Notes: generated from the letters alone by a model not told the origin. A stretch of 48,931 nt of DNA from Candidatus Staskawiczbacteria bacterium (GCA_049513595.1 JBEKVX010000001.1:1-48931); one strand, 5' to 3'. Shown: positions 570 to 16,147, counted from the stretch's first letter. Translations and numbers: made by a program.

Positions 570-1765
570 TGGAAAATAAATCAGAAAATAAAAAGAATAA
601 AAATGTTTTTTATGTCGGCCTTTTAAGTTTTTTTGGCGGGATATCACAGGATATTTTTTCTCCAATTCTGCCGATTTATCTAACTTCAGTTTTGGGATTT
701 GATAAAACCATTGTTGGCGTTGCTGAAGGAATTGTCTCCGCCAGCGTTAGTATCTTCAGAATTGTTGCGGGATTTTTATCTGACAAATTTAAAAAACAAA
801 AACCGATAATTTTTCTGGGATATTTTTTATCAATGGTCTCGCGACCTTTATTGGTTTTTTTTACATCAGCGGGAGCTGTTTTGGGTTTGCGGCTTCTTGA
901 CGGCGCTGGAAAAGGAATTAAAGATACGCCCAAAGATGTTTTGGTTGCCGGCTCGTCTGAAAAAAATGTGCGCGGAAAGAGTTTTGGTATTGCAAGAATG
1001 CTTGATACTATGGGCTCTGTCGCCGGACCATTAATTTTATTTTTTCTTCTTTGGGTTTTTCAAAACAGCAGTACGCTTTACCATGATATTTTACTTTTTA
1101 CAGCGGTTCCTTTAATAATTACTCTTTTATTAATATTTAAACTTAAAGAACTTCCAAAATCACAACTTACAAAAATTGAAGTTCCTCAGGGACCCAAAGG
1201 GTACCCCGGAAAATTTCCGGCATCATTTTATATTTTTATTGCAATAGTAATTATTTTTACTTTGGGAAATTCATCGGACGCATTTTTAATACTTCGCGCA
1301 AAAGGACTCGGGATATCTTTACTAGAAATTCCGCTTGTGATTGCGCTTTTTAATTTAATTTATGCAGGAGCGGCAATCCCATTCGGTTCTCTGTCCGACA
1401 AAATCGGAAGAATTCCCACTCTGGTTATCGGATGGCTGGCCTTTGCAGTTGTATATTTAGGTTTTGCAATTACCACAAGCGCGCTTTCAGTTTGGTTTTT
1501 ATATTGTCTTTATGGAATTTATTATGCCACAAGCGAAGGCGTTTCAAGAGCGTTGCTGGCAGACCTGGTAAATCCAGACCACAGGGGAAGAGCATACGGA
1601 ATTTTTGGAATGGCGGTCGGCTTAACAACTTTGCCGGCGAGCTTTTTTGCGGGCTTTTTGTGGGATAAATTTGGAGCGCCAGTTCCTTTTTATTTCGGTG
1701 CCTCAATGGCATTGCTGGCGTGCATCGCTTTGTTTATCTATTCCAAAAAATTTCTAAAAAAATAA
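569..1765 (+). CDS. MFS transporter (about 12 TM)
   Basis: Long hydrophobic ORF. I chose the internal ATG at 569 (MENKSENKKNK...) because the 530 start overlaps the promoter block. TM-rich throughout, with a D/K-rich loop typical of MFS. Confidence 0.8.
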   Translation: MENKSENKKNKNVFYVGLLSFFGGISQDIFSPILPIYLTSVLGFDKTIVGVAEGIVSASVSIFRIVAGFLSDKFKKQKPIIFLGYFLSMVSRPLLVFFTSAGAVLGLRLLDGAGKGIKDTPKDVLVAGSSEKNVRGKSFGIARMLDTMGSVAGPLILFFLLWVFQNSSTLYHDILLFTAVPLIITLLLIFKLKELPKSQLTKIEVPQGPKGYPGKFPASFYIFIAIVIIFTLGNSSDAFLILRAKGLGISLLEIPLVIALFNLIYAGAAIPFGSLSDKIGRIPTLVIGWLAFAVVYLGFAITTSALSVWFLYCLYGIYYATSEGVSRALLADLVNPDHRGRAYGIFGMAVGLTTLPASFFAGFLWDKFGAPVPFYFGASMALLACIALFIYSKKFLKK

Positions 1766-1782
1766 AATTAAAAAAAGTTTTG

Positions 1783-1803
1783 AATCCGCGAAAGCGGATT
1801 TTT
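1783..1803 (+). terminator. Intrinsic terminator
   Basis: Hairpin aatccgc-gaaa-gcggatt followed by a T run. Confidence 0.7.
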
Positions 1804-1814
1804 AGTTATAGACA

Positions 1815-1843
1815 TTGACACATTTATTTAAAAAATATATCAT
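1815..1843 (+). promoter_or_regulatory. Sigma70-type promoter (TTGACA-17-TATCAT)
   Basis: TTGACA at 1815-1820, a 17-nt AT-rich spacer, then TATCAT at 1838-1843. It points into the GC-rich segment. Confidence 0.6.
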
Positions 1844-1851
1844 TTAATAAC

Positions 1852-2286
1852 GTCTGGCTCTGTTGCGGAATGGTTCTGCGACAAGTTGACCCAGCCAGAT
1901 TGTGCCGGTTTTCCTTTTTGGGAGGATTTGCCATGAAGCGCCGGTTGCACCTGGACATGAAGATTTCGGCCACCACGAAGAAGAAGACGACTGCGGTGCA
2001 CGCGCTGCTCTGACCAAGATCCGGGCCGGGCGGCGTGTGAAGATGCCGTAGGCACCTAGTGTGCCACGGCACGCGGACTACGACGGGAAGACATCTGTCC
2101 ACCGGCAGGTGTCAAAATTACTTCACTAGCAGCTAGCAGCCCCGGTGGATCGGACTGGCTGGCCCGGTGCGGAGGGGCTCCAGATGCGAGCATGAGTGGA
2201 ACGCCGCTTGTCTCAGGGCGCGGGAACTCATCTCCTTCTTGGAGCCCCTCTCGCACTTGTTTGTTCTTATCGCACATTGAAATCGG
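1852..2286 (+). ncRNA. Candidate structured GC-rich leader/ncRNA co-transcribed with the downstream tRNA-like gene
   Basis: No ORF of 60 aa or more on the promoter strand. There is a perfect 10-bp long-range helix, gaggggctcc (2172-2181) with ggagcccctc (2241-2250). Several local hairpins are present, for example gacatctg/caggtgtc. The only coding candidate is a 26-aa ORF at 1933-2013 behind GGGAGGA. Confidence 0.35.
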
Positions 2287-2362
2287 CGGGGCGTAGCTCA
2301 GCGGCTAGAGTGCCATCACCGTAGAAAGGTGGAGGTCGTGGGTTCGAGTCCTACCGCCCCGA
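2287..2362 (+). tRNA. tRNA-like gene with 3 extra nt in the anticodon arm (identity undetermined)
   Basis: Acceptor CGGGGCG/CGCCCCG, D arm TAGCTCAGCGGCTAGAGT and T arm GTGGG-TTCGAGT-CCTAC are all present. Twenty nt sit where 17 are expected. They fold either as CCATC/GGTGG with a 10-nt loop, or as TCACC/GGTGG with loop GTAGAAA plus 3 unpaired nt. Confidence 0.5.
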
Positions 2363-2370
2363 TTTAGGTC

Positions 2371-2396
2371 AACGGCAGACATAAGTGCCGTTTTTT
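2371..2396 (+). terminator. Intrinsic terminator
   Basis: aacggca-gacataag-tgccgtt followed by a T run. Confidence 0.7.
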
Positions 2397-2397
2397 G

Positions 2398-2425
2398 TTG
2401 TAAAAATTTTGAAATATGATATTAT
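2398..2425 (+). promoter_or_regulatory. Promoter P1 (TTGTAA-16-TATTAT)
   Basis: Closely similar to P2 at 2992-3019 and to the tRNA-Ala promoter at 14664-14691. All are followed by AAAAAT(A/T)A. Confidence 0.55.
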
Positions 2426-2440
2426 AAAAATTAAATTGTT

Positions 2441-2508
2441 GGGGTCGTAAGCTGAATAGGAACAGCACCCGAAAGGGAGGTATGTGGGTTCAAATCCTGC
2501 CGACTCCA
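2441..2508 (+). ncRNA. tRNA-like RNA lacking a normal anticodon arm, with a G3:U70 acceptor stem
   Basis: Acceptor GGGGTCG/CGACTCC (G3:T70), D arm GCTG-AATAGGAA-CAGC and T arm GTGGG-TTCAAAT-CCTGC are present. The anticodon arm is replaced by the mini-hairpin CCC-GAAA-GGG. Total length is 68 nt. Confidence 0.45.
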
Positions 2509-2566
2509 CTTGCCAGAATTTACTGGTAAACTTTGTTCGTTGACTTTTAAGGCAGGGAGGTGTCTC

Positions 2567-2908
2567 GTGCTAGACGTAAAATTCATGATAGACAGAAAAC
2601 TACTAGATGAGCTCTGCGCGGAGTCAGCCACGCTGGAGCTTACCGATGGCGACCTAATTGATTCATCGCATAGAGAACGGCTTGGCGGCAGAATAAACGA
2701 CTTGAGAACCGAGCTCCTGACCAGAATGGGCGGTGGCACAATTGAGCCCGGTGATGAATTGGAACTGCAGGGATACGTAGATAGCGTTGTGCGGTCAGTG
2801 AACAGTGGCAAGAAGCAGCCAGCAGACGTGATCAAAAACCAGCGTAATCAGATGGCCAAGATATTGGTCAAAGCATCGCGGATCTCGTTGGCGAAAGCAC
2901 TCTCGTAA
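2567..2908 (+). CDS. Hypothetical small acidic protein (113 aa), paralogous N-terminus to ORF 3352-3549
   Basis: GTG start 6 nt after GGAGGTGTCTC (2556-2566). The start 2510 listed in the track would overlap the tRNA-like gene. Confidence 0.5.
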   Translation: MLDVKFMIDRKLLDELCAESATLELTDGDLIDSSHRERLGGRINDLRTELLTRMGGGTIEPGDELELQGYVDSVVRSVNSGKKQPADVIKNQRNQMAKILVKASRISLAKALS

Positions 2909-2941
2909 ACCGTACATCACGGGCCAATCAAAGGGCGCAAA

Positions 2942-2983
2942 GCGTCAGGGACCTTGGAGATCGTCTTCGGGGTCTGTTTTTTT
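2942..2983 (+). terminator. Conserved 3' element plus intrinsic terminator
   Basis: gcgtcagggaccttg is identical to 3560-3574. The stem gaccttggag/cttcggggtc needs G:U pairs, so it forms only in plus-strand RNA. A T run follows. Confidence 0.6.
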
Positions 2984-2991
2984 ACAAAATA

Positions 2992-3019
2992 TTGCAAAAT
3001 TTTTGAAAAGTAATATCAT
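2992..3019 (+). promoter_or_regulatory. Promoter P2 (TTGCAA-16-TATCAT)
   Basis: Paralogous to P1. Confidence 0.55.
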
Positions 3020-3039
3020 AAAAATAATCTGACACATCT

Positions 3040-3211
3040 GGAACTACGTGCCACGTAGTTCCGAACAAGAAAGGAGGTGTGTCATGACGGGGAAGCTGTG
3101 GTGTTGCTCGGCCATCAACACGTCGTAGGCACAAGAAGATCGCCGAATTGCGTGTAGTGTCCGAGCGGAGCCACTGGGCAGGAAGCGGAGCGTGTCTGCT
3201 CTGCCCAGTGG
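3040..3211 (+). promoter_or_regulatory. Structured 5' leader of tRNA 3217-3290 containing a 14-codon mini-ORF
   Basis: Perfect 10-bp hairpin at 3040-3062. Mini-ORF at 3084-3128 (MTGKLWCCSAINTS) behind AGGAGGTGTGTC. Perfect 11-bp hairpin ccactgggcag/ctgcccagtgg at 3171-3211. Confidence 0.4.
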
Positions 3212-3216
3212 CCAAC

Positions 3217-3290
3217 GGAGACGTAGCTCAGTTGGGAGAGCGCCTGGCGATTAAACCAGGAGGTCGTAGGTTCAACTCCTATCGTCTCCA
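3217..3290 (+). tRNA. tRNA with an 8-nt anticodon loop (CGAUUAAA); identity undetermined
   Basis: Perfect acceptor GGAGACG/CGTCTCC, D arm GCTC-AGTTGGGA-GAGC, anticodon stem CCTGG/CCAGG and T arm GTAGG-TTCAACT-CCTAT. It is 74 nt to the discriminator, so one nt is extra in the anticodon loop (3248-3255). Confidence 0.65.
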
Positions 3291-3351
3291 TTTTAGCCAG
3301 ACCGTCACTGGCGATCAGCTCATTGTTCTCCTTATTTCGTGGAGGTGTCTC

Positions 3352-3549
3352 ATGAACTTCGCAGGCATGACAGACGAAAATCTCCAATCGTGGCTAGATG
3401 ACCTTACAGAAGAAAGAGATGTGCTCGATGAGCGCAAATTTCCTTGGGCCGCACTTTCTTATGACCAACAAATCGCCGCGCTAGAGCAAGAACTCCAAGG
3501 GAGGAAATCTCCTGAGAGCTCGACACTTCAAGCGACTGCGACTGCGTAA
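3352..3549 (+). CDS. Hypothetical small acidic protein (65 aa)
   Basis: ATG 6 nt after GGAGGTGTCTC (3341-3351). The longer track ORF from 3148 runs through the tRNA and is rejected. Confidence 0.5.
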   Translation: MNFAGMTDENLQSWLDDLTEERDVLDERKFPWAALSYDQQIAALEQELQGRKSPESSTLQATATA

Positions 3550-3559
3550 GGCGCGATTC

Positions 3560-3606
3560 GCGTCAGGGACCTTGAAGTTGAAGTTCAGCTTCGGGTCTAT
3601 TTTTTT
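3560..3606 (+). terminator. Conserved 3' element plus intrinsic terminator (paralog of 2942-2983)
   Basis: gcgtcagggaccttg, then stem gaccttgaag/cttcgggtc, then a T run. Confidence 0.6.
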
Positions 3607-3635
3607 GTTTTTTTAGAATTGCGCATAGAAACCAC

Positions 3636-3664
3636 TTGACTTTTGGTTTTTTTAGGTCTAAAAT
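3636..3664 (+). promoter_or_regulatory. Promoter (TTGACT-17-TAAAAT) upstream of grpE
   Basis: Hexamers at 3636-3641 and 3659-3664. Confidence 0.5.
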
Positions 3665-3807
3665 ATAGAATATAAATAAAAATTTAAAGCAAAATATGCC
3701 CTTTACGAAACGAGGCAAATATTATTACAGCCCAAGCGGCAGAAAATTTACAAAAAAACAAGTAGCTTTATATTACGCCACTCAGGGATTTAGGAAAAAA
3801 CCAAAAA

Positions 3808-4323
3808 ATGCCAGAAGAAAATAAAAAAAATAATAAACAAAAAGAGGAATCCTCCTCCGCTAAAGCTACGGAGGATGAGGTTGCGAACCTCAAAAAAGAA
3901 TTGGAAGACGCAAAAGCAAAGTGCGAGGAATATTTAAACGGCTGGAAACGCGAGCGCGCTGATTTTTTGAATTACAAAAAAGATGAAATGGAAAGAATTG
4001 GGCAACTTGTAAAATATTCAAACGAGGAATTAATTTTAAAAATAATTCCAATTTTAGACAACATTTATTTAGCCGAGTCGCACGTTCCAAAAGAATTCGA
4101 AGGCAACGATTGGCTGGCAGGATTTTTACAAATTAAAAAACAATTGTCTGGCTTTCTTTCCAAAGAGGGGATTGAGCCCATAAAAACAACCGGCGAAAAA
4201 TTTGACCCAAACACAATGGAAGCGGTTGAAGGAGAAGGCGAAATTGTTTCAGAAGAACTCCAACGCGGCTACACCCTGCACGGAAAAATAGTCCGCGTCG
4301 CAAAAGTAAAAATTTCAAAATAG
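3808..4323 (+). CDS. grpE: Nucleotide exchange factor GrpE
   Basis: Charged coiled-coil N-terminus followed by a GrpE-like core (WKRERADFLNYKKD ... GYTLHGKIVRVAKV). It sits next to dnaK and dnaJ. Confidence 0.9.
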   Translation: MPEENKKNNKQKEESSSAKATEDEVANLKKELEDAKAKCEEYLNGWKRERADFLNYKKDEMERIGQLVKYSNEELILKIIPILDNIYLAESHVPKEFEGNDWLAGFLQIKKQLSGFLSKEGIEPIKTTGEKFDPNTMEAVEGEGEIVSEELQRGYTLHGKIVRVAKVKISK

Positions 4324-4340
4324 TATAACATAGTGAAAAC

Positions 4341-4376
4341 GATTGTTCCAAAGTTCTTGAGAACTTTGGAACAATC
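4341..4376. repeat. 36-bp palindrome (16-bp arms), probably the grpE terminator or an operator
   Basis: gattgttccaaagttc-ttga-gaactttggaacaatc. It contains a 21-mer that recurs at 4651-4671. Confidence 0.6.
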
Positions 4377-4384
4377 ACCGTCGG

Positions 4385-4402
4385 TGATATAATAAATTTA
4401 TA
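4385..4402 (+). promoter_or_regulatory. Extended -10 promoter TGATATAAT 8 nt before ATG 4402 (leaderless mRNA predicted)
   Basis: The same block as 553-569. Confidence 0.5.
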
Positions 4403-4674
4403 TGAAAAAAAGTTATTATCAATTAGAAAGAATCGTCAAAGGTGTTGCAAACCATCGGCGGATTGAGATTTTGGAATTATTAAAAATAAATCCAGAATTA
4501 TCTTTGGAAAATATTTCAAGAAAATTAGGCGTTAATTTCAAAACCATATCCGAACACATCAAAAGGTTGGCGGCAGCAGGATTTGTTTTGAAAAGATACG
4601 AGGGTCACAACGTCCGACACAAAATAACAAATAGAGGTTCGGTTATTCTTAAGTTCTTGAGAACTTTGGAATAA
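4402..4674 (+). CDS. ArsR/SmtB-family winged-helix transcriptional regulator
   Basis: 90 aa. NHRRIEILELL...LSLENISRKLGVNFKTISEHIKRLAAAG is a typical ArsR HTH. Confidence 0.75.
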   Translation: MKKSYYQLERIVKGVANHRRIEILELLKINPELSLENISRKLGVNFKTISEHIKRLAAAGFVLKRYEGHNVRHKITNRGSVILKFLRTLE

Positions 4675-4814
4675 ACGAAACGAATTATATTATGATTGAA
4701 CAGTACGAAAAGCAATTCGGCGAAATAAAAACCCAGTTGCCAGTAATGAATAATAAAAACACAACCGAGGACTCAAAATTAGGATTTTAAATATTAAAAA
4801 GTTATTAGATAAAT

Positions 4815-5345
4815 ATGGAGGAACAAAAAATTCAGCTTGATGGGATTCATTGGTGTTTGTATTCATCTGGTGATATTGAACCATTATGCCCTAAACATAA
4901 TCTAAGATTAAGACCGGGTGATGAAGCACGACGTTTTCATTGGGATTACACAGAATTATATTGCGAGGAATGCGCTAAGCCGTATACTCTGCCACGATAC
5001 TATTCTAAAGAGACACAATATATTCGCGACAAAATAGATTCTAAAGAATTTAAGTCGCTCAAATTAATTAATTTAGATGACGAAGCCATTCCTTTGGCAG
5101 AGGATAAAGTTAAAACAAAGGACGGTAAATATTTTGTTACCGCTCTACTAACGGAATCGAAAGTTGGAAAAAGATTGGTTATTTATGCTGGAGAAAAGGG
5201 TAAAAATGAAAAATGTCAGATTTTTGTCGAGCCAGAAGTGAGGAGACTTTCATTTGATCAAAAAGATATTCACCCTAATGACGTTTTTCTAGAAGTTCAA
5301 GCTAAATTCAAAGATGGCGGAACTCATCAAATAAAAAATAATTAA
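4815..5345 (+). CDS. Hypothetical protein with an N-terminal CPxH...CxxC zinc-ribbon-like motif
   Basis: 176-aa ORF with Cys pairs (LCPKH ... CEEC). No family recognised. Confidence 0.5.
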   Translation: MEEQKIQLDGIHWCLYSSGDIEPLCPKHNLRLRPGDEARRFHWDYTELYCEECAKPYTLPRYYSKETQYIRDKIDSKEFKSLKLINLDDEAIPLAEDKVKTKDGKYFVTALLTESKVGKRLVIYAGEKGKNEKCQIFVEPEVRRLSFDQKDIHPNDVFLEVQAKFKDGGTHQIKNN

Positions 5346-5356
5346 AAAATAAAATT

Positions 5357-6505
5357 ATGGCTGGAAAATTTTTGAGTTTTGTTAAGCATTGGTCGAAGGA
5401 AATTATTATCGCGCTGGTTCTCGCTATCGTTGCGTATTTCATCTGCGACGCATATCTTAAAGGAGCCAAACAACAAATTGTTCAGGATAATTTAAAAGCC
5501 GTGATAACTGTTGTAGCGGAGGACAAGTCGGGCAAACCCATTGGACAAGGTAGCGGATTTTTTATTAACCCCAACGGTGAATTAGTAACTAATTATCATG
5601 TAATCAAGGGGGCATCCAATATAGTAGCTACATTTCCAACTGGAGCTATTTATATGTTAGACAAGATAATTTATCAAGATGCAAGCGCTGATATTGCCGT
5701 TCTCCAATTTGTCGCGAAAAATACTCCGTACGTTAATTTAGGCAATTCGGACGGTGTCAAGCCATACCAAGATATATACGCTATCGGCACCCCCGATGGT
5801 TTACAAAATACTATATCAAGTGGTGTCATAAGCAATCCAGATGTCGACGGTTACATTCAATTTACTGCCCCGATTTCTCCGGGAAGTAGCGGTGGCGGTC
5901 TTTTTGACGAAAATGGAGACGTGATTGGCGTTACAGCTGAAAATCAACAAATTTCTTCAGGACCACAAAAGGGAGAGGATCAAAATCTTAATTTTGCAGT
6001 TCCTATAAATAACGTTAAAACTGTTCTTGCTGGCAATACAAATATTACAAGTGGTAGTCCCGAACTTTACTATTCTCAAGGAGTTTTGGCAGACAATAAC
6101 CAACAATGGGATATTGCTATTACAGATTACAACCAAGCGATTCAAATTGATGATAAATATTCTGATGCATACATGGGGCTAGGTTGGGATTATTTTTATA
6201 AAGGAAACTATAACCTAGAGCTGAAAAATTTTTTAGCGGCGACACAATTAGCGCCGAATAATTCAGACGATTTGTATTATCTCGCTGGATCCTATGAAGA
6301 TGTTGGGCAATATTCTGATGCGATAAATACATACACGAAAGTTTTAAAATTGAAACCCGACTATACAGCTGCTTTACATGATTTGGCACTAGCTTATTTG
6401 GCTGTTGGAGATAAAAACTCTGCGACTCAATTAGTTCCCGTATTAACAAAATTGGACAAGGGATGGGGTAATGAATTAAATATAATAATAAATAATACTA
6501 AATAA
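5357..6505 (+). CDS. Trypsin-like serine protease (S1C/DegP-like catalytic domain) fused to TPR repeats, N-terminal TM anchor
   Basis: His (TNYHVI), Asp (DIAVLQ) and Ser (SPGSSGGGLF) triad motifs. The C-terminal region has TPR-like repeats (AIQIDDKYSDAYMGLGW..., KVLKLKPDYTAALHDLA). Confidence 0.75.
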   Translation: MAGKFLSFVKHWSKEIIIALVLAIVAYFICDAYLKGAKQQIVQDNLKAVITVVAEDKSGKPIGQGSGFFINPNGELVTNYHVIKGASNIVATFPTGAIYMLDKIIYQDASADIAVLQFVAKNTPYVNLGNSDGVKPYQDIYAIGTPDGLQNTISSGVISNPDVDGYIQFTAPISPGSSGGGLFDENGDVIGVTAENQQISSGPQKGEDQNLNFAVPINNVKTVLAGNTNITSGSPELYYSQGVLADNNQQWDIAITDYNQAIQIDDKYSDAYMGLGWDYFYKGNYNLELKNFLAATQLAPNNSDDLYYLAGSYEDVGQYSDAINTYTKVLKLKPDYTAALHDLALAYLAVGDKNSATQLVPVLTKLDKGWGNELNIIINNTK

Positions 6506-6530
6506 AATAATCAAATAAAACAAAAAACAT

Positions 6531-8390
6531 ATGTCAAAAATACTTGGTATAGATCTTGGTACTACTTTTTCCGCCATGGCGGTTGTTGAGGGCGGGGAAG
6601 CAAAAATTGTGGAGAATAAGGAGGGGGCGAGGACTACGCCGTCAATCGTGGCGATTACGAAATCGGGAGAACGGGTTGTTGGCGTTCTTGCAAAAAGGCA
6701 GGCGGTGACAAATCCGCAGAATACAATTTTTTCGGTTAAGCGTTTAATTGGCAGAAAATTTTCTGATGCGGAGGTGCAGAGAGACAAAAAATTATTGCCC
6801 TATGAAATTAAAGAAGCCAAAGACGGAGGCGTGGAAGTAAAAATGGGAGATAAATTTTATAATCCTGCTGAAATTTCGGCTATGATTTTGCAAAAATTAA
6901 AAGCAGATGCCGAAGCAAAGCTTGGAGAAACAATTTCTGAAGCAATTATTACTTGCCCGGCATATTTTGATGACTCGCAAAGGAAGGCAACGAAAGTTGC
7001 AGGAGAAATTGCAGGATTTGTTGTAAAAAGAGTTATCAATGAACCGACTGCGGCGGCTTTGGCTTATGGATTGAACAAAAAGAAAGATGAAAAAATTGTT
7101 GTGTATGACTTTGGCGGAGGAACTTTTGATATTTCTATTTTGGATGTGGGAGCCGACACAGTTGAAGTTAAAGCAACCGGCGGAGACACGCATTTGGGCG
7201 GAGATGATTTTGACCAGCGAATTATGGATTGGGTTGTAAAAGAATTTAAAAAAGACAATGGAGTTGATTTGTCAAAAGATAATTTGGCTTTGCAAAGAAT
7301 AAAAGAAGCAGCTGAAAAAGCAAAAATTGAGTTGTCGTCTTCTTTGGAAACAGAAATTAACTTGCCGTTTATAACTTCTGATGCTTCCGGTCCAAAACAT
7401 TTGTTGCTGAAATTAAAAAGAGCCCAACTGGAAGAAATGGTGGCCGATTACATTGATAAATCAATTGATTTGGTGAAAAAAACAATGAAGGAAGCCGGGC
7501 TTGAACCAAAACAAATAAATGAAGTCGTATTGGTTGGAGGGCAGACCAGAATGCCAAAAATGATTGAAGAAGTTAAAAAATATTTTGGCAAAGAACCCAA
7601 CAAAGAAGTAAATCCAGACGAAGTTGTGGCAATTGGAGCCGCAGTGCAAGGCGGAATTATGCAAGGCGAAGTGCGGGATGTTTTATTACTGGATGTGACG
7701 CCATTGTCATTGGGAATTGAAACATTTGGCGGAGTCAACACAATTTTGATTGCAAAAAACACAACTGTGCCGACTGCCAAAAACCAAATTTTTTCAACGG
7801 CGGCGGACAGCCAGACAAGTGTTGAAGTCCATGTTTTGCAGGGCGAACGTCCAATGGCGCAAGACAACAAAACTCTTGGACGATTTATTTTGGACGGAAT
7901 TCCGCCCGCTCCAAGGGGCTTGCCGCAAATTGAAGTAAGTTTTGACATTGACGCAAACGGAATTTTAAATGTTTCGGCAAAAGATAAGGCAACAGGGAAG
8001 TCCCAGTCAATTAAAATTGAGGGGTCTAGCGGAATTTCAAAAGAAGAAGTTGAGCGCATGAAAAAAGATGCGGAAATGCACGCAGCCGACGACAAAAAGA
8101 AACAAGAAACAATTGAAATAAAAAATACCGCCGACGCCCTGGTTTACACCTGCGAAAAGACATTAAAAGATTCTGCTGATAAAATTAAACCGGAAGATAA
8201 AAAAGAAGTTGAGGATAAAATTGCTAGCTTGAAAGACGCGCAAAAAAGTGATAATATAGAAGAAATTAAGTCAAAGACAAAAGATTTGTCGGAATTAATC
8301 CAAAAAATAGGAGCGGAATTGTATAAAGAACAACCAAAAAAAGATGGCGACGAGCCAAAAGCCGAAGAAGGAAAATACACAGAGAAATAG
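6531..8390 (+). CDS. dnaK: Molecular chaperone DnaK (Hsp70)
   Basis: [17 protein letters not shown] and [10 protein letters not shown] signatures; 619 aa. Confidence 0.98.
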
Positions 8391-8472
8391 TTTACTGGTT
8401 AACTGGTAGCTGGTTTGCTGGTTATTTTAAAAGCCAGAAAACTAGACAACCAGAAAACTAGTCAACCAGAAC
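8391..8472. repeat. Intergenic CTGGT x4 / ACCAG-AAAACTAG x2 repeat block
   Basis: The left half carries ctggt four times. The right half carries ccagaaaactagNc twice. The 16-mer at 8448-8463 is the exact reverse complement of 9568-9583. Confidence 0.6.
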
Positions 8473-8473
8473 A

Positions 8474-9553
8474 ATGGATTACTATGAAATTCTTGGAGTC
8501 ACTAAAAGTGCCTCGCAAGAGGATATAAAAAAAGCATTTCATAAACTGGCGCACAAATATCATCCGGACAAAGGCGGAGATGAAAAAAAGTTTAAGGAAA
8601 TAAATGAAGCGTACCAGGTTTTGTCTGACCAGCAAAAAAGAGCGCAGTACGACCAGTTTGGCCGTGTATTTGACCAAGGCCAGCCAGGTGGCGACCAGGG
8701 ATTTAATTGGGCATGGGGAAACAGACCTTCGGGAGAGGAATTTGAATTTGATTTTGGAGATATCGGAGACGTATTTTCTGAATTTTTTGGCGGTGGTAGG
8801 CCAAGAAGCAAAAAGGACTTAAGAAAAGGAAAAGATATACAGGTTGATGTTGAAATAAACTTAGAAAGAACGTTAAAAGAATCGGTTGAAAAAATAAATT
8901 TAACAAAATATGTTGTCTGCCACAGATGTAGTGGGGCGGGAGCGGAACCGGGCAGCAAAGTAAAAGAATGTTTTTCTTGCAGAGGAACAGGACAGGTTCA
9001 GCAGGTTCAGAAAACCGTCTTTGGGTCTTACACGACTTTAGCAACTTGTCCGGAATGCAAAGGCGAAGGAACAATTCCCGAAAAGCCATGCAATGTTTGT
9101 AAAGGTGAAGGCAGAATAAAAGGCCAAGAAACGATTGAAGTGCGCATTCCGGCCGGAATTGACACAAACCAAGTCATAAGAGTTGATGGCAAGGGCGAGG
9201 CAGGAAAAAAAGGAGCCAAATCAGGAAATTTATTTTTGAGAATATTTATAAAACAACATTCTATTTTTGAGAGAAGGGGAGACGACTTGTTTTGCCAGAC
9301 GGAAATTAATTTTTCGCAGGCAGCACTGGGCGACGAAATTGAAATGAAAACATTGGAAGGAACAAATATTTTGCTGCAAGTGCAGGAGGGGACCGAATCA
9401 GGAAAGGTTTTAAGAATTTCAGGAAAAGGGATTCCGCATTTTGGCGGGTATGGCAGAGGAAATTTGTATATTGAATTAAAAATCAAAACACCGCGAAAAT
9501 TATCCAGAAAACAAAAAGAATTATTTGAAAAATTGAAAGAAGAGGGGATGTAG
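8474..9553 (+). CDS. dnaJ: Co-chaperone DnaJ
   Basis: J domain with HPD (KYHPDKGG), a G/F region and four CxxCxGxG zinc-finger repeats. Confidence 0.97.
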
Positions 9554-10366: not shown

Positions 10367-11251
10367 ATGATACGACTTTCTAATGGTGTTGAGTTTGAGT
10401 ACGTAAATGCCAGCGGGGCCTTAAACTACGATGGCAACGGTTATCTGCCCGAACAGCCACTGCGCATGACCGGCTATCTAAATTCGTCGCTTCCTCGTTC
10501 CATAACCATTGCCAAGTCCCTGACGTTTAACCCAAACAAGGGAAACTTCAAATGGTACTGGCCGTGGGGATGTATCCGGCCGATTTGGGATGGCGGAGAA
10601 ATTATCGGAGTCCACAACGCCTACGGGCTCACCAATCCCGGGTACCTGCGGTGGTGCAGAAAAATCGGGTCGCGCGTTGATTCTTCAAAAATCCGGCTTG
10701 CTGTTTCCATTTGCGGCGAGCCAGACGAACTGGCAGAGATGGCGGCAGCGGTCAGCGATTTCGATATCGTCGCGGTTGAAGTCAACGTCGGCTGCCCGAA
10801 CACAAAGGGTGGCGTCAAGCTTAACCCCGGGAAAATAATTGAATCCTGCCACAAGGTCAAGAGCCGCACGCAAAAACCAGTTTTCCTGAAGGTTTCTGTT
10901 GCGCACCAAGGCGTGATGCCAGAAATCCTAAAAGGAATTGAAGACGTTGTTGAAGTTTTGGAAATCAACAGCGTTCCTTGGGACATGGTTTTTCCAGGCC
11001 GGAAAAGCCCGCTTGCAAAGTTTGGCGGCGGGGCAGTGTCTGGAAAAATCGTTCAGCGCATTACCTGGCCATTTGCAGAACTGCTTACGAGCATGACGCA
11101 AATTCCGGTGGTCTGGCCCAGCATGTGGGATTACAGCGACATCGGGTTGGTGGAAAAAGTAGGCGCCCAAGCCAAGAGCTTCGGGTCGGTTTACACTTTC
11201 CACCCATGGCGACCGACTGCATTCATCAGGAGAAAAGAAAAAAGTCGGTAG
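10367..11251 (+). CDS. Dihydroorotate-dehydrogenase-like TIM-barrel protein (divergent)
   Basis: NASG, NAYGLTNPG, VEVNVGCPNTKGG, FLKVSV and GGGAVSG motifs resemble class-1 DHOD-family enzymes. The usual C-terminal GGI FMN-binding motif was not seen. Start chosen after AAAGGA; ATG 10352 is also possible. Confidence 0.55.
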   Translation: MIRLSNGVEFEYVNASGALNYDGNGYLPEQPLRMTGYLNSSLPRSITIAKSLTFNPNKGNFKWYWPWGCIRPIWDGGEIIGVHNAYGLTNPGYLRWCRKIGSRVDSSKIRLAVSICGEPDELAEMAAAVSDFDIVAVEVNVGCPNTKGGVKLNPGKIIESCHKVKSRTQKPVFLKVSVAHQGVMPEILKGIEDVVEVLEINSVPWDMVFPGRKSPLAKFGGGAVSGKIVQRITWPFAELLTSMTQIPVVWPSMWDYSDIGLVEKVGAQAKSFGSVYTFHPWRPTAFIRRKEKSR

Positions 11252-11257
11252 TCAAAA

Positions 11258-11279
11258 ACAGCAGGGATGCTGTTTTTTT
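11258..11279 (+). terminator. Intrinsic terminator
   Basis: acagca-ggga-tgctgt followed by a T run. Confidence 0.7.
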
Positions 11280-11295
11280 ATCTTACTTTGAAAGA

Positions 11296-11324
11296 TTGAC
11301 AAGCGTTGTCAAGTATGCTATGAA
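11296..11324 (+). promoter_or_regulatory. Promoter (TTGACA-17-TATGAA) with a perfect palindrome over the -35 box
   Basis: TTGACAAgcgTTGTCAA lies at 11296-11312, a 7-bp inverted repeat. Confidence 0.55.
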
Positions 11325-11408
11325 TAATATATTGAGGGTGAGTATTCCCTTATCCTACTAGGGGGAAATGCCTAGAAATAATAGCACTTTTTTTAGAAGG
11401 ATTCAATC

Positions 11409-11954
11409 ATGAAACAGATTGCCGACGGACTGTACGCGGTTGTCGAGGGGATGCCTTGCTCGCCGGATCAACTCAAAATTGTGCCGCACTCGTGCCCCGG
11501 CGCATTAGGCCGGGCCGAGATTGAGGAGGTGGCGGCGCGCGTGCTGCACTTCTCTATGGAGAACGGCCGATGGGTCGGAGTGACCTGGCGGAAGCTCGTG
11601 GCTCAACTGATTACTGAGCATGATGCCGACCAGAAGCTCGCGGTTGCCAACTCCCACAACTTCGAGGAGTATCTGCGGGTGCAAAAGGCGCGGGAGAATT
11701 ACTATGCGCTCTGCGTTCTCACCCTGGGCCTGTACGCCCTGTTCGTGAGCCGGCCCGAGCCCAACTTGATGCCGGTGCCTCAGGTTGACCTGCCGTTGAG
11801 CTTGGTGCCCATCAAGGGTCCCGACTTCATTCCTGAAGCCATCAGAACACTGCTGGACAGCGGACTCCTGCGGCAAGGGAAAAACAACGGGGACGAAGTT
11901 CTCTTTCCTACGTCGCACCTGGTCAACAAGATTATGGCGGCGCAAGCCGCCTGA
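11409..11954 (+). CDS. Hypothetical protein (181 aa, GC-rich)
   Basis: Clean ORF with codon-position GC bias. The antisense ORF 11505-11945 is its shadow. No family recognised. Confidence 0.6.
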   Translation: MKQIADGLYAVVEGMPCSPDQLKIVPHSCPGALGRAEIEEVAARVLHFSMENGRWVGVTWRKLVAQLITEHDADQKLAVANSHNFEEYLRVQKARENYYALCVLTLGLYALFVSRPEPNLMPVPQVDLPLSLVPIKGPDFIPEAIRTLLDSGLLRQGKNNGDEVLFPTSHLVNKIMAAQAA

Positions 11955-11990
11955 TCAAGCAGAGAGCCATGCTCTCCGCCGAACTACTAG

Positions 11991-12027
11991 GCCGCGGAAT
12001 CCTACGGATTGCCGCGGCTGTTTATTT
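11991..12027 (+). terminator. Intrinsic terminator
   Basis: gccgcggaatcc-tac-ggattgccgcggc followed by a T-rich tail. Confidence 0.55.
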
Positions 12028-12038
12028 ACATTAAAATA

Positions 12039-12066
12039 TTGACAAATAAAATATTTGATATATAAT
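12039..12066 (+). promoter_or_regulatory. Promoter (TTGACA-16-TATAAT)
   Basis: Consensus hexamers at 12039-12044 and 12061-12066. Confidence 0.6.
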
Positions 12067-12118
12067 GTAAATAGTTATTGACAGGTGAATACGGACAAAC
12101 ATAAACGAGGGTGATACA

Positions 12119-12613
12119 ATGAATCGTCCACCAATAGTTCGTAGTTGCGGGGGTTGCAACGCCTGTTGCAAAACTCACATAGCTGACGGGATGAAAAGGC
12201 AAGGGGGCGAATACTGCGATCATTGCCAGATTGGACAGGGATGTTTAATCTACGGCAATCATCCATTTGCATGCAGGGACTACCGCTGCATTTGGGCATG
12301 TGGCAAGAGCCAGGAATGTGACCGCCCCGACCGGCTGAAAATTGTCATGGACGGACGCATGCAAGGTTTTCAAGGGATGAAAGTTATGGTGCTGAACTTT
12401 TGGGAAGCAGAAGAGGGAGCCATAAATCAGCCTCGGGTGCAGCTGTTCATGCAAGCTAACATCGAGGCGGGGTTTGTCGCTGTCCATCGTCCATACAAGG
12501 GCAAGCCCGTGTTCCATTTCCCAGAAGGAATGTTTTCAGACGAAGAGCAACAGCTTTTCATAGACATCTTTGAACACTGGCATGGCCTAACGGATTGTGA
12601 TATTCTAGGATGA
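12119..12613 (+). CDS. YkgJ-like cysteine-cluster protein (CxxCxxCC putative Zn/Fe-chelating domain)
   Basis: N-terminal CGGCNACC plus further Cys (CDHC, CRDYRC). GAGGGTGA RBS. Confidence 0.55.
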   Translation: MNRPPIVRSCGGCNACCKTHIADGMKRQGGEYCDHCQIGQGCLIYGNHPFACRDYRCIWACGKSQECDRPDRLKIVMDGRMQGFQGMKVMVLNFWEAEEGAINQPRVQLFMQANIEAGFVAVHRPYKGKPVFHFPEGMFSDEEQQLFIDIFEHWHGLTDCDILG

Positions 12614-15314: not shown

Positions 15315-15336
15315 AAAAAAGCTAAGCGAACTTAGC
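15315..15336 (-). terminator. Intrinsic terminator of the HAD gene
   Basis: The minus strand reads GCTAAG-TTCG-CTTAGC followed by a T run. It overlaps the stop codon. Confidence 0.65.
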
Positions 15337-16147
15337 CCATGCTCTCGTTGCCCAGCCACCAATCGATGACGTCCAAAACGCCACGGGTATATGGGTGAAT
15401 CGAGACCTTACCGCGGTGCTCCCTTACAAATTTAATACAACCGGGCGTTGCATTGCTTGGGCATCCGATTCTGCCAACACTCCTGAAGAGTGGAAAATCC
15501 GACTCTGAATCGCCTACGGCAATGCACCAGGAAGGATCCCAACCCTCGATTCCCATCAGGAACTTTACTGCGGTTCCTTTGCTGACACCGGCAGGAATTA
15601 TGTTAATTGCCCTGTTAAAGTAGCGCTCAACCTTCAGCCGGCGTCTTTTTATCCATTTGTACAATGACCAGCCATGCCTGCGCCATTGTCTTTGTATGAT
15701 ATCGTTTATGGCGGGTTCCAACTCGACCGAAGACCCAGCTTTTTTTTCCAAGCTTTGGCACACCATGTAGCCCAAGTATCTTTGCAGATACCTGTGTCTG
15801 GCCAGTATCGCCGGCACTTTTTTGTTTGCCACCCATTTGAAGAATTTCTCCATGTCGGGCGTGATTGCCGGATTCATTTTCACTTCACGAGTAGTGGGAT
15901 TAAAAAGCGCAGCGCCGCCTTCTACAATCATCCATGAATTTACCATCCCGAAAAAATTGGCCATCAGCTCGACAGAATTTCTGTCTCTGCCAGAGCAGAG
16001 CCGAATACTGGGTCCGTCTCCCACATGGCCGCACCGAGCCAGACGAGCAATTCCGGCGTTTGCTTCATAGTAATCAAGGCAAACGTTTCCGTCTGATGAC
16101 GTAAGGCACCCGTCTATGTCCAAAAGCACGCCAAATTTATTGTCCAT
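15332..16147 (-). CDS. HAD-superfamily hydrolase (Cof/HAD-IIB-like phosphatase)
   Basis: DIDGCL (DxDG motif I) and GDSESD (motif IV). Confidence 0.7.
   Translation of the reverse strand: MDNKFGVLLDIDGCLTSSDGNVCLDYYEANAGIARLARCGHVGDGPSIRLCSGRDRNSVELMANFFGMVNSWMIVEGGAALFNPTTREVKMNPAITPDMEKFFKWVANKKVPAILARHRYLQRYLGYMVCQSLEKKAGSSVELEPAINDIIQRQWRRHGWSLYKWIKRRRLKVERYFNRAINIIPAGVSKGTAVKFLMGIEGWDPSWCIAVGDSESDFPLFRSVGRIGCPSNATPGCIKFVREHRGKVSIHPYTRGVLDVIDWWLGNESMG

Follow-up and report, generated by a model that had tools for sequence, protein, structure and literature searches.

In E. coli, the thrU-tyrU-glyT-thrT-tufB operon joins ordinary decoding tRNAs to a protein gene, in a pairing that is not specific to a protein family. 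In Staphylococcus, tRNA-Gly isoacceptors used for cell-wall bridges are excluded from translation at the EF-Tu step; their anticodon loop is the usual one, as GlyRS depends on it. Type III toxin-antitoxin systems of the ToxIN kind consist of a promoter, a structured RNA built of tandem repeats, a hairpin and a protein gene, which encodes an endoribonuclease toxin. The tRNA-like domains of tmRNAs, in turn, have no canonical D stem. Forms of tmRNA without a coding sequence (CDS) occur in jakobid mitochondria, in Mallomonadaceae plastids (plastid forms of ~65 bp) and in phage DS6A (PMC11915505). Finally, the t-elements of plant mitochondria (Forner et al. 2007, PMC1920247) are tRNA-derived, cloverleaf-like structures at the ends of protein-coding transcripts; in Arabidopsis, they are cleaved from the mRNA and then receive CCA and base modifications, but no amino acid (PMC1920247; PMC11658184).

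Here, we describe a locus in a stretch of 48,931 nucleotides from a Candidatus Staskawiczbacteria bacterium (the window, by which we mean the whole stretch analysed). Its positions 2398-2983 represent a unit that recurs across the lineage, in Staskawiczbacteria as well as in related Parcubacteria, and in which a tRNA-shaped, alanine-marked, anticodon-less RNA is combined with small proteins. We found no bacterial description of such a combination. The module had gone unrecognised in an earlier note on this DNA, and we indeed found neither a family for it in Rfam, Pfam, PADLOC, PHROGs or NCBIfam nor a description in the literature. We propose, with moderate confidence, that the unit produces a non-decoding, alanine-accepting RNA together with its partner proteins.

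As in the tufB operon, tRNA-shaped RNAs and a protein gene are here apparently served by one promoter, and processing of the RNase P/Z type would part the RNA from the mRNA in both cases. Like the staphylococcal tRNA-Gly, the RNA would, on the reading we prefer, be an aminoacyl-tRNA withheld from translation for another reaction; its exclusion would be absolute, because it has no anticodon, and no Fem/MprF-type enzyme is linked to the unit. The order of parts (promoter, structured RNA, hairpin, ORF, terminator) is also that of type III toxin-antitoxin systems, but a repeat search of 1700-3700 revealed no tandem repeats in the unit and PADLOC gave no match. Moreover, the unit occupies a fixed chromosomal site beside chaperone genes, and the product of its first open reading frame (ORF1) is modelled as a four-helix bundle.

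Organization of the locus

The earlier note had described two modules, 2398-2983 and 2992-3606 (U1 and U2 in the following), duplicated as a unit. These share a promoter type, a start block, an exact 15-mer and a terminator, and each contains one tRNA-shaped gene whose anticodon loop is non-functional. The count has to be extended from two to three, however, since directly upstream lies another unit that runs from promoter to terminator and includes a tRNA-like gene (U0, 1815-2392). The features of the three units are as follows.

1815-1843, + strand: U0 promoter, TTGACA-17-TATCAT; the related locus L099 has a similar promoter in front of a GC-rich RNA
1850-2286, + strand: GC-rich leader or non-coding RNA of U0; no convincing ORF, no Rfam match
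2287-2362, + strand: tRNA-like 0; C1-G72, G3-C70, A73
2371-2392, + strand: U0 terminator
2398-2425, + strand: U1 promoter, TTGTAA-16-TATTAT, TG-extended
2441-2508, + strand: tRNA-like 1, of alanine identity and anticodon-less; G3·U70, A73; CCA not encoded
2511-2528, + strand: hairpin directly 3' of tRNA-like 1, GCCAG..CTGG type, without T run
2535-2546, + strand: 5'-UTR motif GTTCGTTGACTT; family consensus, by inspection, about GYWCRTTGAAAA
2556-2569, + strand: Shine-Dalgarno (SD) and start block of U1, GGAGGTGTCTC-GTG; the block of L086 is identical but has ATG
2567-2908, + strand: ORF1, 113 aa, start GTG 2567; the database entry begins at ATG 2585
2942-2983, + strand: 15-mer (2942-2956) and U1 terminator, into which it leads; stem 2949-2975 followed by T run
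2992-3019, + strand: U2 promoter, TTGCAA-16-TATCAT
3040-3062, + strand: U2 leader hairpin GGAACTACGT-GCC-ACGTAGTTCC; the GGAAC stem start is kept in L092 and L099
3073-3128, + strand: SD and 14-codon upstream ORF MTGKLWCCSAINTS, ATG 3084
3170-3212, + strand: strong hairpin, 4 nt 5' of tRNA-like 2; -35.8 kcal/mol for 3160-3216, z = -5.6
3217-3290, + strand: tRNA-like 2; A3-U70, A73, 8-nt loop CGAUUAAA
3296-3312, + strand: hairpin GCCAG..CTGGC 3' of tRNA-like 2, in position and type like 2511-2528
3341-3354, + strand: SD and start block of U2, GGAGGTGTCTC-ATG
3352-3549, + strand: ORF2, 65 aa, acidic; identical copies only, in four samples
3560-3606, + strand: 15-mer (3560-3574) and U2 terminator, into which it leads; stem 3571-3595 followed by T run

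The promoters of U1 and U2, described as near-identical, share 82% identity across 34 nt (2398-2431 and 2992-3025); both are sigma-70-like by score, with spacers of 16 nt, and the U1 type, TTGCAAAA..AGTAATATYAT, recurs in orthologous loci. The start block GGAGGTGTSTCRTG is likewise identical at 2556 and 3341, and an additional copy at 3073 had been overlooked, giving three copies in the window against 0.00 expected from 100 shuffles. The two copies of the 15-mer GCGTCAGGGACCTTG, at 2942 and 3560, match exactly and lead, as reported, into the terminators; their hairpins, the first of -17.2 kcal/mol (z = -2.9) and the second of -17.4 kcal/mol (z = -3.1), are followed by T runs.

Simple duplication as a unit, by contrast, does not describe the relationship of U1 and U2. 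Their interiors are not alignable, and the two represent different conserved leader types, one direct and one with an upstream ORF. The upstream ORF has counterparts in L092 (MKKLLMMMLPLASARNTS) and L099 (MERWMLSTLNSS), and the L092 changes in the hairpin 3170-3212 match on both strands in an alignment inspected by eye. Hairpins of the same type and similar position as 2511-2528 were seen by inspection, with covariation uncounted, in L086, L090, L094 and L027; the 5'-UTR motif was also seen in L014, where the tRNA-like RNA is absent. A pairing between this motif (UUGAA) and the T loop (UUCAA) was considered and discarded, as species with a UUCGA T loop show, on inspection, no matching change. 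For the GC-rich upstream RNA, a four-locus alignment intended for a consensus fold was poor. Between tRNA-like 1 and ORF1 (2508-2567), we found no promoter and no T-run terminator, and the layout suggests that the two share one transcript.

The region has a GC content of 0.49-0.55 in a genome of ~0.37, and tRNA genes are common integration sites. Both facts would suit foreign or mobile DNA, such as what is left of a phage or integrative element whose attachment sites derive from tRNAs, or else a chimeric join. Yet the assembly, for which the earlier note had considered a chimera, is not chimeric: 1639-9549 is 100% identical in contigs of four independent samples, which also means that within-species strain variation is of no use for dN/dS or covariation. 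No integrase or phage genes were found flanking the units, PHROGs and PADLOC gave nothing significant, and two scans of viral collections yielded no such unit, but only ordinary tRNAs, a phage tRNA-Ala(UGC), chance matches to coding sequence and what may be 3' ends of tmRNAs. Furthermore, the unit is syntenic 5' of grpE in many species, in several of them at native low GC. We disfavour a mobile or chimeric origin and regard it as highly improbable.

A family of tRNA-shaped RNAs

The acceptor stem, D arm and T arm of tRNA-like 1 are normal, while CCC-GAAA-GGG takes the place of its anticodon arm, a 3-bp stem with a GAAA tetraloop; the minimum free energy fold is a cloverleaf. That each of U1 and U2 holds a tRNA-shaped gene is borne out by the Rfam tRNA model (RF00005, gathering score 29), which gives 35.6 bits for 2441-2508 and 60.4 bits for 3217-3290. 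ARAGORN missed the former and reported the latter as 'tRNA-???' with a 4-base anticodon. Neither has the anticodon arm of a tRNA-Ala (5-bp stem, 7-nt loop, U33, NGC and purine 37).

The two RNAs are not equivalent. The alanine identity set (G3·U70, A73, G2-C71) is complete in 2441-2508, but not in 3217-3290, with A3-U70, or in 2287-2362, with G3-C70. As the core of tRNA-like 2 is 72-84% identical to seven members with G3:U70, we read it as a paralog that lost this pair. tRNA-like 0 can be drawn either with a 10-nt loop or with an extended arm of 8-9 bp and the loop GUAGAAA, and the whole resembles the tRNA-Pro(UGG)-like gene L087:40-112.

tRNA-like 1 belongs with other RNAs of Staskawiczbacteria and related Parcubacteria to one family, in which we count 25 distinct elements. 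All 25 retain the pairing of the acceptor (7/7), D (4/4) and T (4-5/5) stems, with compensatory changes, and none of those tabulated has the YU-NGC-R anticodon loop. The hairpin at the anticodon position varies freely, from about 11 to 110 nt (~105 nt in L093); the arm and variable region together span 17 to 116 nt, and among the terminal loops, GAAA is seen four times and GCAA once. Typical elements show G3·U70, G2-C71 and A73 in the acceptor, GG in the D arm and TTCRA in the T arm, and a sigma-70-type promoter stands about 8-15 nt 5' of the RNA. Twelve of thirteen scanned elements exceed the Rfam tRNA gathering score (31-54 bits); the scanned set comprised the window element, eleven relatives and L099, the last being absent among the matches listed.

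Twelve elements were found without imposing a G·U pair at 3:70, and all twelve have it, while double compensatory changes occur at 1:72, 5:68 and 7:66 and a single change at 4:69. In their alignment, 99.3% of the cells are paired, compared to 34-61% in slid controls, and five pairs vary on both sides. Since the elements are related sequences, the invariance of G3·U70 covers fewer than twelve independent events. The discriminator is A73 in ten of the twelve; the G of L093 and the U of L099 would weaken alanine identity there.

Judged from these sequences, the RNA retains all the tRNA features required to fold, to have its ends processed and to be recognised by alanyl-tRNA synthetase (AlaRS), whereas any hairpin seems to serve in place of the anticodon arm, and the RNA therefore cannot decode. 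An intron-containing tRNA-Ala was considered and rejected, as no arm contains an interrupted YU-NGC-R loop; bacteria are also not known to have the splicing endonuclease.

One might instead see in these RNAs what is left of a decaying cluster of tRNA genes (Pro-X-Ala) that lay by chance 5' of the chaperone operon; they would be pseudogenes without selected function, retained through their neighbours. The tRNA-like genes are indeed clustered and differently defective, both here and in L086/L087, where L087:40-112 is still tRNA-Pro(UGG)-like and the L086 allele is more degenerate, and neither 2287-2362 nor 3217-3290 has alanine identity. Neutral decay would, however, strike every arm, whereas the 25 elements vary in the anticodon arm only and preserve their stems by compensatory substitutions, even as the linked proteins fell to 16-45% identity across lineages. 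For the G3:U70 family, we disfavour the pseudogene reading and consider it very unlikely.

Another alternative is a tmRNA-type rescue RNA without CDS, which would be charged with alanine and enter stalled ribosomes, a role proposed for the jakobid, plastid and DS6A forms, with the small proteins as cofactors or regulators; this would be a specific sub-case of the explanation we prefer. The tRNA-like domain of tmRNA and the elements described here are both G3·U70 acceptor/T-arm RNAs of about 65-80 nt that cannot read codons, they agree in A73 and the T arm, and both may be linked to protein quality control; the unit adjoins heat-shock and proteostasis genes. The Rfam tmRNA model (RF00023 / RF02544) also aligns with both ends of 2441-2511, but only with these, and its 21.6 bits fall far below the gathering score of 47, while the tRNA model passes; at permissive E-values, 1600-3800 matched no Rfam family other than tRNA and this sub-threshold tmRNA. 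Neither ARAGORN nor, on 13 related loci, Rfam called a tmRNA. Of the marks of a tmRNA (a tRNA-like domain without D stem, helix P2 and SmpB), the first is contradicted by a canonical 4-bp D stem-loop in 25/25 elements, with a short hairpin at the anticodon position. No internal tag reading frame, which CDS-less forms also lack, was identified either; the arm of 2441-2508 is 10 nt long, and the larger arms reach about 105 nt (L093). The elements are apparently co-transcribed with SD-led protein genes, none of which is smpB-like in the loci inspected, and ORF1 is predicted to be all-helical. CDS-less tmRNAs are documented, including three 'Standard NoCDS' entries from Patescibacteria (PMC11915505). 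Standard tmRNA is nevertheless usual in this group (5252 in 6765 genomes, 0.78 per genome, like other MAG-rich phyla), so the RNA described here would be an extra. All in all, we consider a tmRNA-type RNA improbable.

Linkage to small proteins and the chaperone operon

Whether the tRNA-like RNA and the small ORF stay together in related genomes had been set beforehand as the test of the module, and they do. From the protein side, 11 of 14 distinct loci of the ORF1 family have a G3:U70 tRNA-like RNA 40-130 nt upstream on the same strand. From the RNA side, SD-preceded small ORFs follow directly downstream in 6/7 elements of grpE-anchored genomes and, in a metagenome scan, in 12 of the 13 inspected elements of the acceptor type; in the latter, the elements are followed by an SD with ORF-A and/or ORF1-family genes and then by hrcA-grpE-dnaK. 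The unit always lies upstream of (hrcA-)grpE-dnaK-dnaJ. Downstream of the RNA, it comprises a hairpin, the GYWCRTTGAAAA motif, a strong SD, one or two small proteins and a conserved terminator, the proteins being of the ORF1 family (predicted four-helix bundles) everywhere and of the ORF-A family in some relatives.

The link, which had been called hard-wired, is frequent but not strict. The ORF1-family genes of L094, L027 and L014 have no tRNA-like RNA in cis, which shows that the protein does not need the RNA on the same transcript; conversely, in L006, the element occurs without an ORF, flanked by a promoter and a terminator of its own, 84 nt 5' of grpE, which speaks for an independent function of the RNA.

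With the tRNA-like RNA at the predicted mRNA end in more than 20 related loci, the layout is that of t-elements, and the main rival to our proposal is that the RNA acts only in cis, on the processing or stability of the mRNA, as a bacterial analogue of those of plant mitochondria. Its tRNA shape would merely recruit RNase P/RNase Z and so define a hairpin-protected mRNA 5' end, and the excised RNA would be uncharged and have no function of its own. Both kinds of element lack a decoding role and an encoded CCA, and RNase P/RNase Z cleavage is expected for both. The t-elements of Arabidopsis provide the precedent (PMC1920247; PMC11658184), and the elements lie where such a signal should, about 8-15 nt from the predicted transcript start and directly 5' of the conserved hairpin, UTR motif and SD; this position at the 5' extreme of the mRNA is equally expected of a pure processing signal. 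The unconstrained anticodon arm fits as well, as does 3217-3290, which stands before an ORF although it has no G3·U70.

What this account leaves unexplained is the invariant G3·U70 amid covarying neighbours, as pair 3·70 is dispensable for RNase P/RNase Z and a G-C or A-U would be at least equally stable, and also the stand-alone element of L006 with its own terminator. Moreover, the hairpin and UTR motif persist without a tRNA-like RNA in L094, L027 and L014, so the mRNA does not require it. The t-elements are organellar and of heterogeneous origin, whereas the elements here are bacterial and chromosomal, form one family and keep to a single genomic neighbourhood and a single family of proteins, one even standing alone; and the invariance of the AlaRS identity pair suggests that they are charged, unlike t-elements. 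In our estimate, a pure processing signal is rather unlikely.

The encoded proteins

HMM searches had been suggested for both ORFs, with divergent outcomes: ORF1 belongs to a small conserved family with the core ..D.DLI..S....L......LR.ELL.RM.., whereas ORF2 is, by its sequence, an orphan without detectable relation to ORF1. In phmmer searches, ORF1 matches its family at 3e-17 to 3.5e-4, and an HMM built without ORF1 recovers it at 7e-5 among 5703 ORFs. An HMM of either subfamily recovers the other subfamily, and the only matches of these HMMs in the 5703 ORFs are those located at this site upstream of (hrcA-)grpE. The N-terminal similarity between ORF1 and ORF2 that had been claimed could not be reproduced: BLASTP gave no alignment, hhalign a probability of 2.3%, and the family HMMs miss ORF2.

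For neither ORF did Pfam, PADLOC, PHROGs or NCBIfam yield anything significant, and a word-indexed protein search returned self matches only; a profile search found seven unnamed proteins. Matches to the giant proteins P0006, P0009, P0010 and P0012 in an exhaustive search were discarded; P0006, P0009 and P0012, which we scanned, are coiled-coil stalks of trimeric autotransporters, and we consequently read the matches as compositional.

AlphaFold models ORF1 as a confident four-helix bundle (pLDDT 87.8, pTM 0.81). A Foldseek search of the PDB with this model retrieved generic four-helix bundles only (best E = 0.42), and PDB sequence searches with ORF1 and ORF-A gave nothing below E = 0.4. From the model, ORF1 would be a small acidic helical protein rather than one with an endoribonuclease fold.

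A possible function for the unit

In our preferred reading of an alanine-accepting RNA made together with its partner proteins, the tRNA-like RNA would be excised from the primary transcript by RNase P together with an endonuclease for the 3' side, for instance RNase Z, CCA would be added and AlaRS would charge it; the charging step we infer from the fact that AlaRS requires the acceptor stem only. The product would be an alanyl-RNA held out of normal decoding. The residual mRNA, its 5' end now at the protective hairpin, would be translated, so that RNA and protein would be made in fixed proportion. Both would probably act jointly in a process related to protein quality control, for which ribosome rescue, alanine tailing or another Ala-tRNA-dependent transfer are candidates. 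U2 would be a second variant with the upstream-ORF leader type, whose tRNA-like RNA is without G3 and whose ORF may have diverged past recognition or been replaced.

More tentatively, and with some doubt on our side, the dedicated alanyl-RNA, an otherwise whole tRNA body whose anticodon arm was deleted or replaced, charged by AlaRS via G3·U70, and one or two helical proteins could form a ribonucleoprotein for quality control beside DnaK. It might, for instance, mediate template-free alanine addition, or ribosome rescue without a tag frame or SmpB, and would then constitute a new class of bacterial aminoacyl-RNA effector, apart from tRNA and tmRNA.

If the RNA is charged, it would be a natural tRNA body retained solely for its amino-acid-accepting half, exploiting the indifference of AlaRS to the anticodon, and a third kind of alanine-accepting RNA beside tRNA-Ala and tmRNA, in a little-studied, largely uncultured radiation. 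It would also tie such an RNA to two uncharacterised small-protein families and a chaperone locus. As a mere processing signal, it would still be, so far as our literature search shows, the first conserved bacterial counterpart of t-elements, and would offer a defined route by which the tRNA-processing machinery shapes mRNA 5' ends. In either case, gene finders mislabel these elements, which ARAGORN reports as Lys, Leu, Arg or Gly tRNAs, and tRNA inventories and inferences about codon capacity can consequently be distorted.

Two units of one family upstream of grpE

The units lie on a contig of 48,931 bp from 'Candidatus Staskawiczbacteria bacterium', a metagenome-assembled member of the Candidate Phyla Radiation, in a region (2001-3500) with a GC content of 0.49-0.55 against a background of about 0.37. 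Their surroundings are as follows:

upstream of the units: two MFS transporter genes
1815-2392: a third promoter-to-terminator unit (promoter TTGACA-17-TATCAT, 437-nt GC-rich stretch, tRNA-like gene 2287-2362, terminator)
2398-2983: first unit, with tRNA-like gene 2441-2508 and ORF1 (locus tag ABSF55_00025)
2992-3606: second unit, with tRNA-like gene 3217-3290 and ORF2
3808-4323: grpE, downstream of the units
downstream, after grpE: an HTH gene, a trypsin-like/TPR gene, dnaK and dnaJ

The region is not an assembly chimera, since 1639-9549 is 100% identical among contigs of four independent samples, with no strain variation among them.

An earlier note described the two units as paralogous modules, and each of the shared elements that it names is there. 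Their promoters are indeed near-identical (82% over 34 nt, both matched by a sigma-70 scan), and each unit holds a tRNA-shaped gene, scoring 35.6 bits (2441-2508) and 60.4 bits (3217-3290) with the Rfam tRNA model (gathering score 29). The common start block GGAGGTGTSTCRTG occurs three times in the window against 0.00 expected, its third copy (3073) opening a 14-codon upstream ORF (3084-3128), and the 15-mer GCGTCAGGGACCTTG has two exact copies, each leading into a stable terminator hairpin. Because they have promoter, start block, 15-mer and terminator in common, the units are two variants of one family. The paralogy does not extend to their interiors, for which we found no alignment, and the proposed kinship of the two encoded proteins gained no support: ORF1 and ORF2 have no detectable relation. 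Within this genome the flanks are nearly identical, which suggests a recent duplication or gene conversion of the unit ends.

A family of alanine-type tRNA-like RNAs

All three tRNA-like genes of the window are defective in the anticodon region, with a 10-nt loop or extended helix (2287-2362), a GAAA tetraloop on 3 bp (2441-2508) and an 8-nt loop (3217-3290). A structure-based scan of 80 related loci from species-representative genomes, anchored on grpE and with no identity pair imposed, yielded, upstream of grpE, seven tRNA-shaped genes whose anticodon arms are non-canonical (window and loci L006, L020, L024, L026, L029 and L032). All are on the grpE strand and carry G3·U70, the wobble pair of alanine identity that AlaRS recognises together with A73; ARAGORN labels for these elements are Lys(ctt), Leu(taa), Arg(acg) and Gly(ccc). 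Five further elements precede distant metagenomic ORF1 homologs (L086, L090, L092, L093 and L099). Acceptor and T stems of the twelve are 99.3% paired, compared with 34-61% when partners are slid, and five pairs have changed on both sides; pair 1:72 is G-C or A-U, 5:68 is U-A or C-G and 7:66 is G-C or A-U. Pair 3:70, by contrast, is G·U in 12/12, and A73 is present in ten.

Searching metagenomes for tRNA bodies that have G3:U70 and an enlarged middle part (114 loci) provided 112 elements, 52 of them ordinary tRNA-Ala and 60 non-canonical. Pooling in thirteen of acceptor type GGGGTCG/CGACTCC gave 25 distinct sequences. Acceptor (7/7 pairs) and D stem (4/4) are complete in all, the D-stem types GCTC/GAGC, GCTG/CAGC and ACTC/GAGT being compensatory with one another, and T stems have 4-5 of 5 pairs. 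Arm plus variable region spans 17-116 nt, with terminal loops including GAAA (four times), GCAA, triloops and larger loops; a YU-NGC-R loop occurs in none of the 25. With stems intact or nearly so, G3·U70 invariant and the anticodon arm free to vary, selection retains the tRNA top half, the elbow and the alanine mark and disregards the anticodon arm.

Twelve of 13 family elements scanned with Rfam score as tRNA at 31-54 bits (window and eleven relatives; that of L099 was scanned and is not listed). None of those scanned reached the tmRNA threshold, the window element scoring 21.6 bits against a gathering score of 47. The elements encode no CCA, and their 3' trailers are U-rich.

The ORF1 family and its chaperone neighbourhood

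A word-indexed protein search with ORF1 matched only itself, and exhaustive phmmer found six small proteins (E 3e-17 to 3.5e-4). Four giant proteins also matched by phmmer were dropped as compositional, because Pfam identifies three of them as trimeric-autotransporter stalks. As the homologs begin MQDVKLM... immediately after GGAGGTGTCTCATG, the true start of ORF1 is GTG 2567 (113 aa) and not the annotated ATG 2585. Run against the full set of 5703 ORFs (40 aa or longer) from the related loci, an HMM of the 'long-form' proteins matched window ORF1, ORFs directly downstream of the tRNA-likes in L020, L026, L024, L032 and L029, and two ORFs in L027. In the reverse search, an HMM of the 'short-form' ORFs recovered window ORF1 at 7e-5 and one new member in L014. 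The HMM searches thus trace a family for ORF1 through related loci and do not pick up ORF2. AlphaFold models ORF1 as a confident four-helix bundle (pLDDT 87.8, pTM 0.81); structure and sequence searches returned no informative neighbour, and the libraries searched hold no name for the family. By eye, the C-termini of ORF2 and of many family proteins are short tails with a final alanine (..ATATA, ..TTATA, ..TVAPA, ..LQTA, ..LQIA; window 3352-3549, L029:4260-4568, L032:2122-2439, proteins P0003/P0007/P0011), which are loosely reminiscent of C-terminal degradation tags.

The ORF1-family gene has a constant place immediately upstream of a short hrcA, grpE, dnaK and dnaJ, and is often preceded by FKBP or MsrA genes. 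The HrcA proteins of these Parcubacteria (L020:5540-5986, L024:5394-5921, L032:2540-2956 and others) comprise 138-175 aa, the N-terminal third of the 338-position TIGR00331 model, and a CIRCE-like operator, TTATCACTC-N9-GATTGNTAA, overlaps the -35 of the hrcA promoter. In the window and in L006, no hrcA precedes grpE.

A G3:U70 element lies 40-130 nt upstream of the gene in 11/14 distinct ORF1-family loci. L094, L027 and L014 have the gene without the element but keep hairpin, UTR and SD; for L027 this absence is not certain, because a run of N with duplicated flanks (L027:4519-4617) occupies the expected tRNA-like site upstream of its long-form ORF1 gene. Conversely, L006 has the element alone, directly followed by a terminator. 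The proposed tRNA-ORF linkage is therefore frequent but not strict, and with the kinship of ORF1 and ORF2 undetected, the earlier interpretation as a whole is supported in part. In several relatives, a second small-protein family, ORF-A (..ERYIFxYDDE..LGRFASNPELSF.W.DA..), is encoded between the RNA and the ORF1-family gene.

Two leader types

The direct type (2398-2983) runs promoter, tRNA-like, hairpin, GTTCGTTGA motif, SD, ORF1. The second type (2992-3606) runs promoter, hairpin, SD, upstream ORF, strong hairpin, tRNA-like, hairpin, SD, ORF, and in L092 and L099 it stands ahead of G3:U70 elements and long-form ORF1 genes as well. In its second hairpin, the two strands carry matching changes (alignment A8, by inspection). 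The upstream ORF has 12-18 codons and a conserved position and C-terminal end, N-[TS]-S-stop; that of the window, headed by a separate copy of the strong start block, encodes MTGKLWCCSAINTS (L092, MKKLLMMMLPLASARNTS; L099, MERWMLSTLNSS) and may be a regulatory leader peptide. The core of tRNA-like 3217-3290 is 72-84% identical to seven family members and 57-63% to the window's real tRNAs. Since it has A3-U70, alanine identity would be lost. Its companion ORF2 sits in the slot of the ORF1-family gene, yet is unrecognisable as one.

Proposed function and relation to known systems

Neither a promoter nor a T-run terminator separates RNA and ORF. We propose that the RNA would be released by RNase P and RNase Z-type cleavage, receive CCA and be charged by AlaRS, giving an alanyl-RNA unable to decode, while the remaining mRNA, its 5' hairpin retained, would be translated. 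In layout, the nearest known systems are the t-elements, tRNA-like processing signals on plant mitochondrial mRNAs, which are organellar and uncharged (PMC1920247; PMC11658184). That our elements, too, are pure processing signals seems less likely: a Watson-Crick pair would serve folding and processing at least equally well, yet G3·U70 never varies, and L006 retains the RNA as a stand-alone gene. For these reasons we favour a trans-acting charged RNA, to which we give an even chance. Candidate uses of the alanyl-RNA are tmRNA-like rescue, template-free alanine tailing or Ala-tRNA-dependent transfer, for which the chaperone neighbourhood is only a hint.

In chemistry, the CDS-less tmRNAs come nearest (PMC11915505), but the elements have a true D arm and fail the tmRNA model. 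Standard tmRNA is general in the phylum carrying them (0.78 per genome). In full-text literature searches we found no account of such a unit in bacteria. We see it as a novel variant either of mRNA-attached tRNA-like elements or of alanine-accepting non-decoding RNAs; a new class of aminoacyl-RNA effector is possible, though less likely than not.

Upstream RNAs and further observations

The 437-nt GC-rich stretch of the third unit has no Rfam match and no convincing ORF. Its tRNA-like (2287-2362) has C1-G72, A73 and an acceptor similar to that of a tRNA-Pro(UGG)-like gene (L087:40-112), and its 3' end, CGCCCCGA, also opens L090, 11 nt before the G3:U70 element there. In several species, the tRNA-like/ORF1 unit is immediately preceded by a GC-rich, apparently non-coding RNA that has a promoter and a terminator to itself (window 2150-2290; L099:3310-3640; L027:5080-5400; L024:4690-4815). 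These four have no Rfam match and have in common a long-range helix, CAGRTGYGAG ... CTCRCATCTG.

Flanking tRNA-likes seem to turn over rapidly, because L086 and L087, which encode an identical P0003 protein, differ strongly in the first tRNA-like of their arrays (L086:1-63, L087:40-112): in one of them the anticodon loop is Pro(UGG)-like, with T loop TTGAAAT and D loop AATTGCTA, and the other combines a loop of 5 nt with T loop TCCAAAT.

Unrelated organisms, in other contexts, also have tRNA-shaped genes with G3:U70 and a non-canonical anticodon loop (L165, L132, L169 and L241, GC 0.63-0.66; L170, L133/L206 and L135, AT-rich tRNA arrays), some alone with terminators and some within tRNA arrays. 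Anticodon-defective alanine-type tRNA-likes may thus be spread more widely than the Staskawiczbacteria-related lineage.

Finally, the coding DNA of the window is a mosaic of AT-rich and GC-rich segments (1-528, 530-1765; 10370-12613; 15332-16147), which may include acquired DNA. An MFS C-terminal fragment of GC 0.53 (1-528) abuts a complete AT-rich MFS gene (530-1765), and more GC-rich protein-coding islands follow tRNA-Lys (9996) and tRNA-Ala (14778).
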